From NCBI GenBank assembly GCA_021731365.1, contig JAKFXL010000036.1, positions 2,503 to 66,502 on the forward strand: 64,000 nucleotides of DNA, written 5' to 3'. The notes beneath the pieces are model-generated. The model was not told where the DNA came from, did not search any database, and was given only the letters and a program-made list of their open reading frames with translations. The translations under genes and the position numbers were made by a program. Position 1 is the stretch's first letter; the number at the start of each line of letters is the position of its first letter. Positions 1,790 through 64,000 of the stretch are shown here, in pieces. This DNA comes from Gammaproteobacteria bacterium (GTDB lineage Bacteria; Pseudomonadota; Gammaproteobacteria; Tenderiales; Tenderiaceae).

Positions 1790-4591
1790 ATGAATCTGTT
1801 TTTTGCGGTACTTACCCCTTTTCTAGGTGCTGTGCTGGTGGCGTGGGCCTCCCGCTTTGGGCGATCTCATGCCGCCTGGGCGGCAGGCGGCGTGGCGTTG
1901 ACTGCGCTGGCCTGGTTGTCGCCGCTGCTGTCGCAGCCATTTGCTGGCACAACAGTGGTGCAGCGCCTTGAGTGGATGCCATCGGTGGGGCTTGATCTGG
2001 TCTTCCGCCTGGATGGGCTGGGGCTGCTGTTTGCCGGACTGATCCTGGGTATCGGCCTTCTGGTGATCCTCTATGCCCGTTACTACCTCTCGGAACGTGA
2101 CAGCATGGGGCGTCTTTACGCCTATCTGCTGCTCTTTATGGGTTCCATGCTGGGGGTGGTGCTCTCTGAAAACCTGATCCAGCTGCTGATTTTCTGGGAG
2201 CTGACCAGCCTCTCCTCATTTCTGTTAATTGCCTATTGGCGCGAGCGCGAGATGGCGCGCATGGGCGCACGTATGGCGCTGGCAATCACCGGTGCTGGTG
2301 GCTTGGCACTGCTGGGGGGGATCCTGCTGCTGGGCGAGATCACGGGCAGTTATGAACTGTCGGTGATTCTGGCATCGGGAGACCTTATTCGTGGCCATTC
2401 ACTCTATCTGCCTACACTAATATTGGTATTGCTGGGGGCGTTTACCAAGTCGGCTCAGTTCCCCTTCCATTTCTGGTTGCCTCATGCCATGGCGGCCCCC
2501 ACCCCGGTGTCGGCCTATCTGCATTCGGCGACGATGGTGAAGGCGGGGGTGTTTCTGCTGGCGCGTCTCTTTCCGGCGCTGTCGGGTACGCCAGAGTGGT
2601 CCTGGCTGGTGGGTGGGGCGGGACTGTGTACGCTGTTGCTGGGGGCGGTGGTTGCGCTGTTCAAACATGACTTGAAGGGGCTGCTGGCCTATTCCACTAT
2701 CAGCCATTTGGGGTTGATTACACTGCTGTTTGGCATTGCCACCCCGATGGCCGTGGTGGCTGGGGTATTCCACATTATCAATCACGCCATCTTTAAGGCA
2801 TCACTATTTATGGCCGCCGGCATTATCGACCATGAGACCGGTACCCGCGATATGCGTCGTATGCAGGGGCTTTGGCAGTTTATGCCGTTTACTGCGACGT
2901 TGGCCATGGTGGCGGCGGCGTCGATGGCGGGGGTGCCACTGTTTAACGGTTTCCTGTCGAAGGAGATGTTGTTTGTTGAGGCGAGTGAGATGGCGTCGCA
3001 GCAGAGTTTTGGCTGGCTGTTGCCGGTGACGGTGACGGTGGCGGGTATTTTTGCCGTGGCCTACTCATTACGCTTTATCCATGATGTCTTTTTTGGCGGC
3101 AAGCCGCTTGAGTTGCCCCGGACGCCCCATGAGCCACCGCGCTGGATGAAGGTGCCTGTGGAGGTGCTGGTACTGCTGTGTCTGGTGGTGGGGCTGTTTC
3201 CGGCACAGACGGTAGCGCCACTGCTGGCGGTGGCGGCGGCGAGCACGCTGCAGACGGCGTTGCCGGAGTATAACCTGGCGATTTGGCACGGTTTTAACCC
3301 GGCGTTGTGGATGAGTGTGACGGCCCTGGTGGGGGGGGTGTTGCTCTATCTTGTGCGCAGACCGTTCTCTCTTTTACATGACCGTTTTGAAGGCCAGCTG
3401 GATGCCCGCCGTCTCTACAACGCCCTGCTGCAGGGGTTAATGGTCATTGCCCGGCGGATAACCGCGCTGCTTGATGTTGGTTCATTGCAACGGATGGTCT
3501 TTGTATTTATTGGCTTTGCGCTGTTGCTGGGGTGGATGGGCTGGAGTGGTGATCGGTCAGTGCTGACTGGGTCACGGCCACTGTTGCCAGTGGATGCGAT
3601 GAGTCTGTTGGTGACCGCTGTGCTGACAGTGATCTCTGTTGCTGTTGTAATTTTGCATCGACAGCGGTTTACAGCCTTGGTTCTGGTAGGGTTTGTGGGG
3701 TTGGTGGTGTCGTTGATTTTTGTGAAGTTTTCTGCCCCGGATCTTGCCCTGACCCAACTGCTGGTTGAGGTGGTAACAGTGGTGCTGCTGCTACTGGCGC
3801 TCTATTTTCTGCCTCAGCACTCGCCTGTTGAGTCCCATCCGCTACGTCGGAGCCGGGATGGGCTGCTGGCCCTGTTGGTGGGGGGCGGTGTGGGTGCCCT
3901 GGCGTGGGCGGTATTGACCCGGCCCCACAGCAGCATCGGCGATTTTTTCCTGGCGAACAGCGTTTCGGGTGGCGGTGGGAGCAACGTGGTGAATGTGATT
4001 CTGGTCGATTTCCGCGGGTTTGATACGCTGGGCGAGATTACGGTACTGGCGTTGGCGGGGCTGGCGGTCTACGCCTTGCTGGAGAAGCTTCATATTAGTG
4101 GTCCATCCCAGAATGCCGATGGACGTGATTGGAACTGGGATCTGCATCCGGTCATTATGGCGTCATTCACCCGCCTGTTGCTGCCGCTGGCGCTGCTGGT
4201 CTCGGTGTTCATCCTGTTGCGCGGCCATAACTTGCCCGGCGGCGGTTTTATCGCCGGTCTGGTGACGGCAGTGGCGCTGATCATGCAGTATCTGGCCAAT
4301 GGTGTGGCCTGGACCCACTCCCGCTTGTCGGCCAACATGCATCCGGTGGTGGGGGTGGGGCTGCTTATTGCGACGTTGACTGGATTGGGCAGTTTTGTGT
4401 TTGGTTACCCCTTCCTCACCTCCACATTTGGGCATATGAAGTGGCCGCTGGTAGGTGATTTTGAGTTGGCATCGGCGATGGCCTTTGATCTGGGGGTCTA
4501 TCTGGTGGTGGTCGGGGCAACGTTGTTGATATTGATACACCTGGGTTTGATGCACGGTAAAGAGCCCGTTCGTGGCAAGGGAGGACACTGA
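1790..4591 (+). CDS. mrpA: Na+/H+ (monovalent cation/H+) antiporter subunit A, fused MrpA+MrpB (PhaAB-type)
   Basis: 933-aa polytopic protein with NuoL/MrpA-like motifs and a C-terminal MrpB-like extension; first gene of the mrpACDEFG operon. Confidence 0.85.
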   Translation: MNLFFAVLTPFLGAVLVAWASRFGRSHAAWAAGGVALTALAWLSPLLSQPFAGTTVVQRLEWMPSVGLDLVFRLDGLGLLFAGLILGIGLLVILYARYYLSERDSMGRLYAYLLLFMGSMLGVVLSENLIQLLIFWELTSLSSFLLIAYWREREMARMGARMALAITGAGGLALLGGILLLGEITGSYELSVILASGDLIRGHSLYLPTLILVLLGAFTKSAQFPFHFWLPHAMAAPTPVSAYLHSATMVKAGVFLLARLFPALSGTPEWSWLVGGAGLCTLLLGAVVALFKHDLKGLLAYSTISHLGLITLLFGIATPMAVVAGVFHIINHAIFKASLFMAAGIIDHETGTRDMRRMQGLWQFMPFTATLAMVAAASMAGVPLFNGFLSKEMLFVEASEMASQQSFGWLLPVTVTVAGIFAVAYSLRFIHDVFFGGKPLELPRTPHEPPRWMKVPVEVLVLLCLVVGLFPAQTVAPLLAVAAASTLQTALPEYNLAIWHGFNPALWMSVTALVGGVLLYLVRRPFSLLHDRFEGQLDARRLYNALLQGLMVIARRITALLDVGSLQRMVFVFIGFALLLGWMGWSGDRSVLTGSRPLLPVDAMSLLVTAVLTVISVAVVILHRQRFTALVLVGFVGLVVSLIFVKFSAPDLALTQLLVEVVTVVLLLLALYFLPQHSPVESHPLRRSRDGLLALLVGGGVGALAWAVLTRPHSSIGDFFLANSVSGGGGSNVVNVILVDFRGFDTLGEITVLALAGLAVYALLEKLHISGPSQNADGRDWNWDLHPVIMASFTRLLLPLALLVSVFILLRGHNLPGGGFIAGLVTAVALIMQYLANGVAWTHSRLSANMHPVVGVGLLIATLTGLGSFVFGYPFLTSTFGHMKWPLVGDFELASAMAFDLGVYLVVVGATLLILIHLGLMHGKEPVRGKGGH

Positions 4592-59131: not shown

Positions 59132-60130
59132 TCAGCTCATTAACGCCCCAGCTAACGGACTAATCACCGCATTACCACCACGGTTCAATACATGAGTATA
59201 AATTTGCGTTGTCTTCACATCGCTATGCCCCAGTTGTTCCTGCACCGTACGGATATCGGCACCGCGTTGTAACAGATGGGTTGCAAACGAATGGCGCAAT
59301 GTATGGCAGGTAGCCTGCTTTTCAATACCCGCCTTTTTTACCGCAAGCTTCACCGCCCTCTGCAGACTCTTTTCATGCAAATGGTGGCGTCTAATCACAT
59401 CAGCCCTTGGATCTTGAGTGCGCTCCCCAGCGGGGAAAATATACTGCCAACGCCACTCGCGCGGTGCGTTTGGATATTTACGTGCCAAAGCATAAGGTAG
59501 ATACACCTCGCCATAGCCATCGGCTAAATCTTTCTCGTGCAGATTTTTAACGTACTGTAAATGTCGTTTTAACTGAATGGTAAGCTCATCTGCCAGTGTC
59601 ACAATACGATCCTTGCCACCTTTGCCATCAATCACAAAAATAGCATGGTGATCAAAATCCAGATGCATTACCCGTAATCTCAAACACTCCATTAGGCGCA
59701 GACCAGACCCATACATCAAACAGGCTGCTAGCCAATGTACACCACTTAGATTCTTCAATAACCGACTAACCTCATCGACCGTTAGCACCACAGGTAGTTT
59801 TTTTCTCTCCTTGGCCCGCACAGCCCCATTAATATCACCCAGTGGCTGCGCAAGTACATGCCGATACATAAATACCAACGCATTGAGTGCCTGATTCTGC
59901 GTGGCAGGTGCAACATTTCTCTTCACAGCTAAGTAAGTTAAAAAGGCACTAACCTCCATAGCCCCCATCTCCTTGGGATGGCGCTTATTGTTAAAAATAA
60001 TAAAACGCTTGATCCAGTCAACATAAGCATGCTCAGTTCTAATGCTGTAATGTTTGGTGCGGAGCACGTTTATTACACTTTCAAGAAATGGAGATGTTAT
60101 TTTTCTGCCTGAATTCATAAAGCCACCCAT
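59132..60130 (-). CDS. intI: integron integrase IntI (tyrosine recombinase)
   Basis: '[12 protein letters not shown]...RHP', IntI-specific insertion '[20 protein letters not shown]', catalytic '[12 protein letters not shown]...YTHV'; start taken at the Met at 60130 (alternatives 60118 or TTG 60148). Confidence 0.9.
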
Positions 60131-60135
60131 ATTGA

Positions 60136-60151
60136 CTGTATATAACAACAG
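60136..60151. promoter_or_regulatory. LexA box (CTGTATATAACAACAG) overlapping the intI promoter/start
   Basis: perfect CTGT-N8-ACAG palindrome, as described for SOS-controlled integron integrases. Confidence 0.75.
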
Positions 60152-60414
60152 TACTTAATATGAGAAGTAGCTGTCAAGCATGAAAAAGGACAGATTGGGG
60201 TATTTGGCATTATATGATTAAGTGGAATCTAATGATGGGATGAGAAAAATCTACCGATACCAAAGGTACAATCATTTAACTTTCATATGCTTATGGGTTA
60301 TATCCAGTTTTATTTTGTAGTTCAGACCAGAGTCGGGTATAAATAGACAAAAAAGGAAAGACCCCAAAGTGGGGTGTTTGATTACCCCACTTTGGGGTCC
60401 ATTAACTGTTAGCC
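60152..60414 (+). other. attI region (approximate), ending at a GTTAGCC core
   Basis: AT-rich region between intI and the first cassette; candidate crossover G/TT at 60408-60410. Confidence 0.4.
60360..60398. repeat. perfect 14-bp inverted repeat (ACCCCAAAGTGGGG-9 nt-CCCCACTTTGGGGT) within attI
   Basis: read directly from the sequence; lies 10 bp before the GTTAGCC core. Confidence 0.7.
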
Positions 60415-60447
60415 CCCTATTTTTAACCCACCACGAAAGGAAATAAT

Positions 60448-60963
60448 ATGAAACTGAAACTCACGTCACTCTCCCTCATGCTCTGCGCTGGCAGTGCAAT
60501 GGCTGACACAACAGTGCAAATGTCCATGGTCGATGCAAAGGGTGTTAGCGCTAGCGTTGGACAGGTATCAATCACTGAATCAAAGTACGGCATGGTGTTT
60601 TCGCCGTCACTGAAAGGGCTTCCCCCTGGGTTGCATGGGTTCCATCTGCACCAAAACCCAAGCTGTGAGCCGAAAGAGAAGGATGGGAAAATGGTTCCTG
60701 CGTTAGCGGCGGGGGGCCACTACGACCCAAGCGATTCTAAGCGCCATGACACTCCTTGGAGTGACGGTCATCTGGGTGATTTACCCGCACTCTTTGTGGA
60801 TGCAGAAGGCAATGCTAATCAACCTGTACTCGCCCCTCGCCTAAAGACGGCAGATCTTGCAAGTCGTTCGCTGATGGTGCATGTGGGCGGAGATAATCAT
60901 GCGGATCATCCTGCTCCGCTTGGTGGTGGCGGTGCGCGTATGGTATGCGGTGTTATCAAGTAA
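60448..60963 (+). CDS. sodC: periplasmic Cu/Zn superoxide dismutase (integron cassette 1)
   Basis: signal peptide; '[10 protein letters not shown]'; '[12 protein letters not shown]'; followed by attC. Confidence 0.9.
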
Positions 60964-60965
60964 AA

Positions 60966-61029
60966 GCCTAACTCTGCATTCGAGAGGGACGCGCCAAAAG
61001 CGGCGCGCCCCTCAATTTGAACGTTAGAA
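60966..61029 (+). other. attC site 1
   Basis: R'' GCCTAAC ... internal palindrome GGACGCGCC/GGCGCGCCC ... R' GTTAGAA. Confidence 0.6.
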
Positions 61030-61082
61030 GACTTCTTGGTTGTTAATTTTAATCTGTATTACCCATGAAAAGGGAGGCGGGG

Positions 61083-62120
61083 ATGAATTTTATAAAGCTA
61101 TGTATCGCCGGAGGAATTGCATTTATTGCTAATCAGGCTTTTGCTGATGATAAAGCAGAACTCAAAGATGTTAGGTTTGAAGGGACAGATTTAGAAATTA
61201 GCAATAAGTGCGAGGGGAATCCTGGCTGGCTATGTAATAGAGAAAGTAGACTACAAGCACATAAACCAAGCACTGTAGCTTGGGAATATACTGATCAAGA
61301 TGATGGTTCTCTTGAAGTTAATTACTCTCTCAGATACATGCTTGCCAGGCCTGACTGTTCTGTAGAAAGAGATAATGACCAACGAGAATGTATAAATGGT
61401 TGGTGGAAAAGGAATGAATGGTTTCTATCTTACTCTGGTAAGTTTGATTTCTATATGGGAACACGATATTCAGGTCCTGTTGTAAATAGAATTAGCAATC
61501 CAGCTCTTCACTGGAGAATTCACAATCCATCTTTCATGGGTGGCGTGGAGTGGCTAAATATAGCGCTGGAGCATAGATCAAATGGGCAAGTTACAGATTT
61601 TGACCTAAAAGACTCTAACGGAAATTACATTGCAGATCAGCGTTGGCAAGCCGGGGACAGAGCATATATTGATGGCATAAGCCGCGCCGCAAATTATTTT
61701 TCTATTGAAATTAAAGATGGTTATAAAACGGACACTACGGCATACAACTACTGGCTTAGTGCGAAAGCATATTTTACAGATGAATCCTTGGTTACATGGG
61801 GAGATAAGAAAGGATCGGATGTTAGGATTTTGGACTACGATGTACTTCGCCTAGCTTTTGTGGGAAATAAGTTTAAGGGTGAAAATAAGCAGTTTAAGCA
61901 GTTTGAATATGGGTTTGAATACACAATGGGAATGAAGGGGTTTGCCACTGATTCATTGGATGCTTCTTTATATTTTCCCTATGTATTCGGAAAAAGAACA
62001 TATTTCCCAATTAATTATTTCAAAGTCCACGTTGGGCCAATGAATGAACTGTCTAACTACACGGAGTCACAAACAAGCATTTATATAGGTATGAAACTGA
62101 ACCCATACCCATCATTTTAA
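61083..62120 (+). CDS. pldA: outer membrane phospholipase A (OMPLA), integron cassette 2
   Basis: RBS GGGAGG; signal peptide; active-site 'HRSNG'; C-terminal aromatic residue (…PSF); markedly AT-rich. Confidence 0.75.
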   Translation: MNFIKLCIAGGIAFIANQAFADDKAELKDVRFEGTDLEISNKCEGNPGWLCNRESRLQAHKPSTVAWEYTDQDDGSLEVNYSLRYMLARPDCSVERDNDQRECINGWWKRNEWFLSYSGKFDFYMGTRYSGPVVNRISNPALHWRIHNPSFMGGVEWLNIALEHRSNGQVTDFDLKDSNGNYIADQRWQAGDRAYIDGISRAANYFSIEIKDGYKTDTTAYNYWLSAKAYFTDESLVTWGDKKGSDVRILDYDVLRLAFVGNKFKGENKQFKQFEYGFEYTMGMKGFATDSLDASLYFPYVFGKRTYFPINYFKVHVGPMNELSNYTESQTSIYIGMKLNPYPSF

Positions 62121-62135
62121 CGGAATTAACACGTC

Positions 62136-62216
62136 TTCTAACAAGCGCGTGGAGTCGGACTCGCTACGTCGGCGCTTCGCGCCGATTCCGCTCGCCGCTC
62201 ACGCGAAGAGTTAGAA
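62136..62216 (+). other. attC site 2
   Basis: R'' TTCTAAC exactly complementary to R' GTTAGAA; GC-rich imperfect internal palindrome. Confidence 0.65.
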
Positions 62217-62563
62217 CGCAAAGGCACGTTAATAATTTCAGAGAAAGCTCGGCAGTCAGTTTAAGTTCGTAGCTCTCCCATGCTTCAGCATTGTTCGGTA
62301 TTAATCGGGTGTTTAGTATTTGTGCATCTAGAAACATTGAAAGGTGGTCACTTAATCATCTCGGGCATCTTGCTTGGTAGGCTCGCCACAGTTCAGCCAA
62401 AACCTTGCATTGTTCAAGGTTGGTGGTAAGTTAAACAGTATCGTATTTATTAAGGCCAATAGGCGGAAAGTGTGGAGGTCCACTTGAAGGAAAATCGTGG
62501 CGTTGTTTGGCAAGGAGGCGTATCAGTCCTTTCTAATATCCAATTCAATCAAAACATTTTGCT

Positions 62564-62668
62564 TTCTAACCAGCGCGGTCAAGCTGACAAATTTCCGCGT
62601 TCTTCGTTTGTGCTAAATAGCACAAGCCTCTCACCGCTCCAATTTGCAGCTTACCGCGAACGTTAGGT
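62564..62668 (+). other. attC site 3
   Basis: R''-L'' TTCTAAC-CAGCGCGGTCAAGCTG pairs with L'-R' CAGCTTACCGCGAAC-GTTAGGT, leaving one extrahelical base. Confidence 0.8.
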
Positions 62669-62676
62669 GCCCATAT

Positions 62677-63072
62677 ATGTCCACGCTCGAATCAATTAAT
62701 CGGCTCCTGTCAGTCGGCGCCACGCTCCTCGATCATGCAGCGGCGGAAATCCGCGACGCGAAGCTTGAGCCTGTTCGCGAGAACATTGAGAGTATTGGCA
62801 AGGCTTTGGCCGAGGTCTTTGAAATTCAGCACCAGATTTACAAGTTAAAACCTGAACTCACGCCCGAGCACCTAAAGCAGCCCAGTGAGCACTCTGCGGC
62901 CAATCGACTTCTCACCGAGTACATGTACAACGCCTCAGAATTCGAACTCGCTGGAAACATCGAACGAGCTGTCGCAATATTCCAAGAGTTCTTGGCGCTG
63001 GAGTCGTCGCCTCTGCATCGCGACATTGCAGCCGGTGAAATTGAAAGGCTTCGGAATGCCGCAGGCACCTAA
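62677..63072 (+). CDS. hypothetical alpha-helical protein (integron cassette 4)
   Basis: 131 aa, ATG just after the attC3 crossover; ends within the next attC. Confidence 0.5.
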   Translation: MSTLESINRLLSVGATLLDHAAAEIRDAKLEPVRENIESIGKALAEVFEIQHQIYKLKPELTPEHLKQPSEHSAANRLLTEYMYNASEFELAGNIERAVAIFQEFLALESSPLHRDIAAGEIERLRNAAGT

Positions 63073-63133
63073 CATGGCGCTCAACCTCGCTCCCTTCGGT
63101 CGCTGGACGGCGCTAAAGCGCCGCCGGTTAGCT
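63067..63133 (+). other. attC site 4
   Basis: R'' ACCTAAC ... GGCGCT/AGCGCC palindromic arms ... R' GTTAGCT (a second GTTAGCA lies 11 bp further on). Confidence 0.55.
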
Positions 63134-63153
63134 CTACGTTAGCAACTAGACTC

Positions 63154-64000
63154 ATGGGCCCTGAGTACGATGACAAGTTCTTGCAGGAAACTCTAGCCCG
63201 CGCTCTCGCGGAGGAAGATAGTTACTGCGTACCTAAAGGCATCATTCGCTTTGATTACGGAAACACCCATGGCTGGTGGGTGCGCGTAAAAAGAGACAAC
63301 ACCCCGTTCCGGCAGCTATTCAGCGATGGCAATGGCAGCATTGCTGATTCGCTGAATAAAGCCATCCTGTATCGGCATGAATTGTTATCGTCATTTCCTA
63401 TGACGATCAAAGTAGCTCATAGCAGGAGCCTGCCGCTTGAACCCGAGAAACGCATATTCAGGGTAGAAGAAAAAGGTAAAAAGCAACCGTACATTGCTTG
63501 GGAAGCCAAATGGTACGACGAGAACTATGCAATAAAGCATGCGCATTTCTCGGTTAAAAAGTTTGGCGAAGATGAAGCAAAAGCTCTGGCGCTCGCAGCC
63601 GCACGCAAAAATCACAACAGACGGCCAAAACTTACAAAGATTCCTGATAACTACTTCACACACGAGTGCAAGAAAATCCTTCGCGCTGATCTTGCTGTAG
63701 CAGCCACCATTAATAGCCGTAAATCCAGCACCGCTGGGAAACAACCGTCCGAAATCATCAGCACAGACCCTTTTGCTTTTGAGGGCGAGAGGTACCTTGT
63801 TCTTCATCGTTCCATCGAGAGGGATCGGAAAATTAGAACTGCAAAATTGACCGATTTCATTCAGAAGCATGGTTCGCTTTTTTGTGAACTATGTTCATTC
63901 AGGTTTTCCGATACCTACCCCTTTCTGAAGAAAGACATAATTGAAGTGCATCATATGGTTCCGCTGTCCACATTAACAAAGGTGACAGAGACAAAACTTA
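63154..64000 (+). CDS. twin AP2-domain + HNH endonuclease (integron cassette 5, 3'-truncated by the window)
   Basis: own translation gives MGPEYDDKF...GWWVRVKRD... / ...HFSVKKFGEDEAKALALAAAR (AP2-like) and ...FCELCSFRF...EVHHMVP (HNH); the frame is open to the window end. Confidence 0.6.
   Translation, partial: MGPEYDDKFLQETLARALAEEDSYCVPKGIIRFDYGNTHGWWVRVKRDNTPFRQLFSDGNGSIADSLNKAILYRHELLSSFPMTIKVAHSRSLPLEPEKRIFRVEEKGKKQPYIAWEAKWYDENYAIKHAHFSVKKFGEDEAKALALAAARKNHNRRPKLTKIPDNYFTHECKKILRADLAVAATINSRKSSTAGKQPSEIISTDPFAFEGERYLVLHRSIERDRKIRTAKLTDFIQKHGSLFCELCSFRFSDTYPFLKKDIIEVHHMVPLSTLTKVTETKL

Follow-up and report, generated by a model that had tools for sequence, protein, structure and literature searches.

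Background

A sodC gene lies here between an integron integrase gene and a palindrome of 64 bp. The question is whether this gene is an integron cassette that can be moved, or a resident chromosomal gene that happens to stand beside a recombinase gene. We studied the locus within a stretch of 64,000 nucleotides, referred to below as the window. An earlier reading made from the sequence alone (the sequence-only reading) described the gene as a mobile integron cassette and regarded sodC as normally a fixed chromosomal gene. The latter statement is too strong, because sodCI of Salmonella is carried on the prophage Gifsy-2 (PMC8731237, Table 2); sodC is thus horizontally mobile.

In the present study, we compared the locus with protein family models, with a model of attC sites and with related genomes. 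The comparisons indicate, with high confidence, that the window contains a complete integron of the sedentary chromosomal kind, that the genome is that of an uncultured and probably gammaproteobacterial host, and that the attI-proximal cassette carries an intact gene for a Cu,Zn superoxide dismutase, which is predicted to be exported.

Methods

SodC relatives were sought in species-representative genomes, and the relatives found were then compared with the window by blastn. An attC is defined by an R box, an unpaired central spacer (UCS), an L box with extrahelical bases and a variable terminal structure (VTS) (PMC5027507). A hand-written scanner for an R box with a bulged L box was unspecific (32 matches in the window against 10-25 in shuffles) and missed disrupted sites; thus, it was replaced by a covariance model. 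This model, R1, was built from 10 attCs, which came from the array of the sister genome, from two further MAGs and from the window itself (two sites other than that of sodC); the attC of sodC was excluded from it. When the 10 attCs were folded with RNAalifold unguided, the R box, the UCS and the bulged L box were obtained, with compensatory changes at 6 of the 13 pairs.

The coordinates of the features are collected in Table 1.

Table 1. Features of the sodC locus (positions in the window) and of related loci (contig handles beginning with L)
Feature	Position	Strand	Details
intI, integron integrase	59132-60118	-	328 aa from ATG 60118; alternative ATG at 60130
Candidate Pc	60132-60161	+	TTGACT, 18-nt spacer, TAATAT; 9/12 matches; directed into the array
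LexA-box-like CTGTATATAACAACAG	60136-60151	-	overlaps the -10 of the predicted intI promoter
Predicted intI promoter	60136-60177	-	TTGACA 60177-60172, 18-nt spacer, TACTGT 60153-60148
Perfect 17-bp GC-rich hairpin, then TTCCTTTTTT	60359-60400	-	resembles a terminator when read on the minus strand; a few nt before the attI core
Putative attI core GTTAGCC	60408-60414	+	crossover between G60408 and T60409; 40 nt upstream of the sodC ATG
sodC cassette	60409-61023	+	615 bp; leader (39 nt), then sodC, then attC as far as the G of R'; from blastn breakpoints
Shine-Dalgarno AGGA	60438-60441	+	6 nt before the sodC ATG; read from the sequence
sodC, periplasmic Cu,Zn superoxide dismutase precursor	60448-60963	+	171 aa; NF007628 and PF00080
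sodC attC	60966-61029	+	64 bp; R'' 60966-72, L'' 60978-87, L' 61010-16, R' 61023-29
Cassette 2	61024-62210	+	ORF 61065-62120, 351 aa; attC 62136-62216, R1 40.9 bits (in training set)
Cassette 3	62211-62662	+	452 bp; attC 62564-62668, R1 29.8 bits, E 3.5e-5 (outside training set)
Cassette 4	62663-63138	+	ORF 62678-63072, about 131 aa, no family match; attC 63067-63144
Cassette 5, cut by the window end	63139-64000	+	ORF from 63154; weak AP2-domain match, E 1.2e-5, below the Pfam cutoff
leuA-sodC-guanylate cyclase	L109-L114		sodC directly after leuA
SulP-sodC	L115-L118		sodC adjoins the SulP transporter gene
gap-sodC	L088-L090		sodC between gap and rsfS/nadD/proA
GCTGTAGAAAAAC/GTTTTTCTACAGC units	L004:1146; L010:3198 and 10574; L027:621-2413 and 3359-3784; L069:13538-13691; L007:4237

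The integron platform

The integrase encoded by intI scored 483 bits with the TIGR02249 integron-integrase model (cutoff 265) and aligned over its full length with VchIntIA of Vibrio cholerae (2A3V, E 1.1e-110). The IntI-specific insertion and the catalytic HxxR...Y region are covered and intact in this alignment. With the IntI1 model NF011946, the protein obtained 333 bits, under the cutoff of 435; it is therefore not IntI1. The protein is 100% identical in two sister contigs (L086 and L087).

On the left of intI are ordinary chromosomal genes, namely a gene for a PBP1-type transglycosylase/transpeptidase, der, hisS and ispG. On the right is an AT-rich region of 277 bp (GC 0.36), which ends in GTTAGCC. 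This heptamer adjoining intI agrees with an attI core of the GTTRRRY type. The homology with the sister genome (L086/L087) ends at the heptamer, and the homology with the cassettes of three other contigs (L004, L005 and L027) begins there.

We found no association with a plasmid or a transposon: the flanks are housekeeping genes (PBP, der and hisS), the locus is the same in the sister genomes, and PLSDB gave no match. Because the neighbours are PBP and der, the site is shared with the sisters, and the cassette is absent from PLSDB, the integron is a chromosomal and not a mobile one. It is complete and sedentary, and only the cassette is mobile. The phrase "mobile integron cassette" of the sequence-only reading thus holds for the cassette, which is mobile across genomes, but not for the integron itself. 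Among the PLSDB plasmids, only distant sodC genes were found, and a plasmid-annotated sodC1 showed a DNA similarity of only 64% to the cassette gene.

A promoter is predicted for intI, and a LexA-box-like sequence, CTGTATATAACAACAG, overlaps its -10 hexamer. The pattern CTGT-N8-ACAG occurs three times in the window against 0.87 expected, and only the copy at this promoter has an AT-rich spacer. In integrons, intI is known to be under SOS control (PMC5027507), and the intI of the window is probably controlled in the same way through the LexA-like box. The candidate for Pc, the array promoter, is a weak site and the only plus-strand sigma-70-like site between intI and sodC; the count of promoter-like matches in this region is not above that in shuffles. 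We also observed that CTGTATATAACAACAG falls between the two hexamers of the Pc candidate. As the same box touches both sites in this manner, both promoters could be SOS-controlled.

The hairpin just upstream of the putative attI core folds as RNA with -36.4 kcal/mol (z -4.5), and with -34.5 kcal/mol as plus-strand RNA; its T-run is present on the minus strand only. It may insulate intI from minus-strand transcription leaving the array. Lying between the Pc candidate and sodC, it could also attenuate transcripts from Pc.

The sodC gene and its product

The open reading frame next to the putative attI core matched Sod_Cu of Pfam (PF00080) with E 2.8e-31 and obtained 209 bits with NF007628, the SodC equivalog of NCBIfam (cutoff 165). 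The best match among solved structures was SodC of Actinobacillus pleuropneumoniae (2APS, E 4e-64). In the alignment with 2APS and 1Z9N, the Cu and Zn ligand motifs, both disulfide Cys residues and the active-site Arg of GGGGARM are kept. The N-terminus resembles a signal peptide (...LCAGSAMA|D, ending AMA|D, as read from the sequence). These matches agree with the periplasmic Cu/Zn superoxide dismutase that had been named beforehand, and the gene is intact. There is no second sodC within the 64-kb window.

The gene had further been placed between the attI core and an attC of its own, with its own ribosome binding site and no promoter. We found this arrangement in each of its parts: the core is at 60408-60414 and the attC at 60966-61029, AGGA precedes the gene, and the 39-nt leader contains no promoter-like site. 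The AGGA is also kept in the leaders of all related cassettes.

The attC of the sodC cassette

Behind the stop codon, the top strand consists of R'' (GCCTAAC), a 5-nt spacer (TCTGC), L'' (ATT[C]GAG[A]GG), the VTS, L' (CCTCAAT), a 6-nt spacer (TTGAAC) and R' (GTTAGAA). C60981 and A60985 are extrahelical, which gives a G and a T as the bases bulging from the bottom strand; the stem of the VTS is capped by an AAAA loop. R'' and R' form five pairs; position 7 of R' is A and not Y, and is a base of the next cassette. The bottom strand folds with -15.8 kcal/mol (z -3.07; none of 200 shuffles reached this value), and the top strand folds slightly less well.

Model R1 gave this site 50.9 bits (E 1.4e-10), with standard pairs at 13 of 13 positions. 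When both strands of the window (128 kb) were searched, the model matched only at 60966, 62136, 62564 and 63067, all in the array and in one orientation, and it found no attC outside the array. The attC of 64 bp proposed from the letters alone is thereby borne out.

In a scan of metagenomes with the sodC attC, 16 contigs (L093-L108) from groundwater and other sources were obtained, one of which carries sodC. In 15 of the 16, the same attC (96.6-100% identical over 60966-61028, about 61 bp) stands behind at least seven unrelated cassettes. As the upstream sequences are unrelated, this attC is a modular site common to many cassettes, a usual situation where cassettes arise within one lineage, and its distribution points to a shared lineage of cassette formation. 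Another cassette of the sister-genome array carries an 88% copy of it (L086:18658-18720).

These results bear on the simplest alternative, in which a resident chromosomal sodC adjoins a tyrosine recombinase gene by chance and the palindrome is a terminator. Many close SodC homologues (63-82% identity) do occur in ordinary chromosomal contexts without an attC, and the attC region can also fold as RNA (-31 kcal/mol, z -2.7). However, the stem is not followed by a T-run, and the site was passed over in the terminator scan. A terminator, which the sequence-only reading had itself named as the outcome that would overturn it, is contradicted by the structure of the site, since R'' and R' follow the consensus, the 5- and 6-nt spacers and the extrahelical G and T are in place, and a model built independently of the site recognises it. 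The recurrence of the same 61 bp after at least seven unrelated genes, and the break of cross-genome homology exactly at G|TT on both sides (see below), are likewise against a resident gene. We consider this alternative very improbable, and treat the sodC gene as a cassette in what follows.

The rest of the array

The array is not confined to sodC: the integron holds at least four cassettes beyond the sodC cassette. The open reading frame of cassette 2 has no match in Pfam or NCBIfam; its product has a signal-peptide-like N-terminus, and the GC of the cassette is about 0.39-0.40 vs 0.56 for the host. Cassette 3 contains no convincing open reading frame and may be a non-coding or small-peptide cassette; its attC folds on the bottom strand with z -3.95. 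The attC of cassette 4 obtained 56.8 bits with R1, in whose training set it is included.

The same cassette in other genomes

Three contigs share the start of the cassette with the window. In a MAG of Sterolibacteriaceae (L004), the match covers only 60408-61025 (98.1%), and in a MAG of Sulfuricella (L005), only 60408-61023 (87.2%). In a MAG of Polaromonas (L027), the match starts from 60408 (97.1%) and continues until an IS insertion cuts the gene. Two further array contexts carry the cassette at 88.0% (L091) and 89.8% (L092). In L004, L005, L091 and L092, the blastn match is confined to 60408-61023/27, and another attC precedes the sodC cassette. The nearest copies, with 87-98% identity, are binned as Betaproteobacteria MAGs; this assignment depends on the binning, a step that is prone to error when contigs carry cassette arrays. 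As for the window itself, the nearest named relative of the host Der is the Der of the gammaproteobacterium Ca. Tenderia electrophaga, with 75% identity; the host is probably gammaproteobacterial.

From these alignments, the cassette is evidently a discrete unit of 615 bp bounded by G|TT crossover points, and it has evidently moved between genomes and between positions of arrays. The idea of a mobilisable unit also fits the matches of L004, L005 and L027, which contain only the cassette or its start, and the sister genome, in which another cassette comes first. No intI was found within the fetched flanks of the other sodC cassettes, and intI is present in the window lineage only. The other sodC arrays are thus either cut by the ends of the contigs or are attC clusters without an integrase.

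Across der, PBP, intI and attI, the sister contigs L086 and L087 show 98.7% identity with the window; at 60414 the homology is lost. Their first cassette is a Gp49/HTH pair. Because the first cassette differs, cassette content at attI varies between very close relatives, and turnover at attI has been recent. A separate pair of relatives (L084 and L085, 95.4% identical) can be aligned with the window as far as 59004, directly behind the PBP gene, and no further. Either this lineage has no intI side of the integron or it has another one; both contigs stop early in this region.

We also considered that the adjacency of intI and sodC might be a chimera of assembly or binning, produced by repeated attC or attI cores. 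The source is a contig of the MAG type, and arrays of repeated attCs are prone to misassembly. The junction from intI through attI and sodC to cassette 2, however, is present at 99.87-99.96% in three assemblies from different runs (L001-L003; SRR10388054, SRR10388057 and SRR10388058), and nothing beyond a single 7-bp repeat occurs at the junction. As three independent assemblies repeat the junction, it is not a chimera, an explanation to which we attach next to no probability.

SodC lineages and copies outside integrons

In a neighbour-joining tree, the cassette copies formed one tight clade, group A (the window, L004, L005, L091 and L092). Group B (L009, L010, L012 and L015) is a separate clade of SodC, with a different leader and a left boundary at GTTAGC. 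In L010, a significant attC directly follows the stop codon. The sequences thus suggest at least two lineages of sodC cassettes, groups A and B. The sites downstream of sodC in L028 (group C, Sulfuricella sp. T08) and L015 looked attC-like by eye and obtained only 14 and 11 bits, and the two were not retained as demonstrated cassettes; a third candidate lineage, that of L028, is only suggestive.

Relatives of group A with 79-89% DNA identity were found outside integrons, at three unrelated housekeeping loci (Table 1). In these copies, a GTTRRRY stands at -38/-40 from the ATG, and the homology sets in there or within a few bases behind it; the leader is kept, the left flank is unrelated, and the attC is truncated or decayed. 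The simplest reading of these sequences is insertion mediated by IntI at a secondary site, followed by loss of the attC, that is, domestication. Together with the cassettes in the arrays, they lead us to a wider proposal: sodC would be a recurrent and widely circulating integron cargo in environmental Proteobacteria, and integrons would be a route by which a periplasmic superoxide dismutase is permanently acquired. We offer this proposal tentatively, with slightly less than even confidence.

The decayed copies raise the possibility that the window, too, contains a cassette by descent only, now a fixed and immobile relic in a non-recombining integron, with sodC expressed as a normal gene. Such a fate agrees with the relatives fixed in three housekeeping contexts with decayed attCs, and with the mutated R' of the sodC attC in L004 (GTTGCGG) and L091 (GTCATAC). 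In the window, however, IntI is of full length with an intact catalytic region, R' has the canonical sequence GTTAGAA and the attC pairs at all positions of the model, while flanks with 98.7% identity carry a different first cassette. We therefore think a relic improbable here, and retain the reading of a complete integron with a mobile sodC cassette.

Insertions at attC sites

Two kinds of insertion were observed at attC sites during the comparison. First, there are units, 140 bp to 1.8 kb long, that start with GCTGTAGAAAAAC and close with its inverted repeat, GTTTTTCTACAGC. They are inserted directly after GTTGAG, GTTGCG or GTTGAC of the R' of attCs, including the sodC attC of L004. They could be a MITE-like element that targets attC, or an unusual class of cassette. 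Second, a gene for a transposase of the IS110 family (PF01548 and PF02371) lies exactly at G|TT of the sodC attC in L005 (L005:10577-11765). This insertion is reminiscent of the IS1111 group, which targets attC.

A model for mobility and expression

According to integron biology (PMC5027507), IntI would excise the sodC cassette as a circle by recombination at the folded bottom strand of the attC. The recurrence of this attC behind at least seven unrelated cassettes, and the different array positions at which the cassette is found, support such recombination indirectly. IntI would then return the circle to attI, probably once an SOS response has acted on the LexA-like box, and the promoterless gene would thereby come to lie nearest to Pc. 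As the cassette at attI is the one closest to Pc, sodC would be transcribed from the platform and translated from its own ribosome binding site. The signal peptide would export the product, which would dismutate periplasmic or exogenous superoxide. As part of the wider, tentative proposal made above, a stress-coupled loop is possible, in which SOS/LexA control of intI leads to reshuffling, and reshuffling brings sodC to the expressed first position.

Significance

In the searchable literature, neither sodC nor superoxide dismutase turned up as the content of an integron cassette. A single match, in a paper on archaeal integrons, proved to be the title of a reference. As far as this search extends, sodC is a previously unreported integron cargo. 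In structure and mechanism, the cassette and its platform conform to the standard type: of the defining features open to analysis here, all were observed apart from a confidently placed Pc. Our understanding of the integron mechanism is unchanged by it. To our knowledge, most cassettes in chromosomal integrons are without a recognisable function. The sodC cassette has a clear predicted role, periplasmic superoxide detoxification, and is located at what is predicted to be the most expressed position. It is an example of integrons trading genes for stress defence rather than for antibiotic resistance. Because it can be traced at 87-98% DNA identity in other arrays, and is apparently fixed outside integrons too, it offers a tractable natural case of cassette spread, secondary-site insertion and domestication. 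The locus also supplies a set of attC, IntI and attI from an uncultured lineage, ready for recombination assays.

Comparison with known systems

The best structural relatives of the cassette SodC are the periplasmic SodC proteins of Pasteurellaceae and Neisseria (2APS, 1Z9N and 2AQN; E 4e-64 to 1e-59), and the residues for metal binding, the disulfide and the active site are all kept as in these proteins. In Pasteurellaceae and Neisseria, sodC is a resident chromosomal gene, whereas the sodC of the window is a cassette and its enzyme is a predicted one.

Like the sodC of the window, the sodCI of Gifsy-2 encodes a periplasmic Cu,Zn superoxide dismutase as the accessory cargo of a mobile element, and the two enzymes belong to the same family (match of the cassette SodC to 1EQW, E 2e-54). 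The vehicle of sodCI is a lambdoid prophage with its own regulation, in contrast to the site-specific recombination between IntI and attC. The setting of sodCI is that of host and pathogen, and that of the window is environmental.

The superintegron of Vibrio cholerae (VchIntIA) shares several features with the window: intI is divergent and has a LexA-like box, attI ends in GTTRRRY, and the array has one orientation, its promoterless open reading frames each being followed by an attC (PMC5027507). The two differ in their sites: the attCs of the window vary from 64 to 105 bp, whereas the VCRs of Vibrio cholerae are one homogeneous family of repeats. They also differ in cargo and host: the window carries SodC, an enzyme that is well characterised, and comes from an uncultured Proteobacterium.

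Class 1 resistance cassettes, for example aadA7 with attCaadA7, have the same cassette anatomy and attC geometry as the cassette of the window. In attCaadA7, unpaired spacers of 5 nt and 6 nt flank an L box that has a G as extrahelical base and then a T. The extrahelical bases of attCaadA7 are named G16 and T23 (PMC5027507). Unlike the class 1 resistance cassettes, the cassette of the window is not located on a transposon or plasmid, has no antibiotic-resistance function, and is accompanied by an integrase that is not IntI1.
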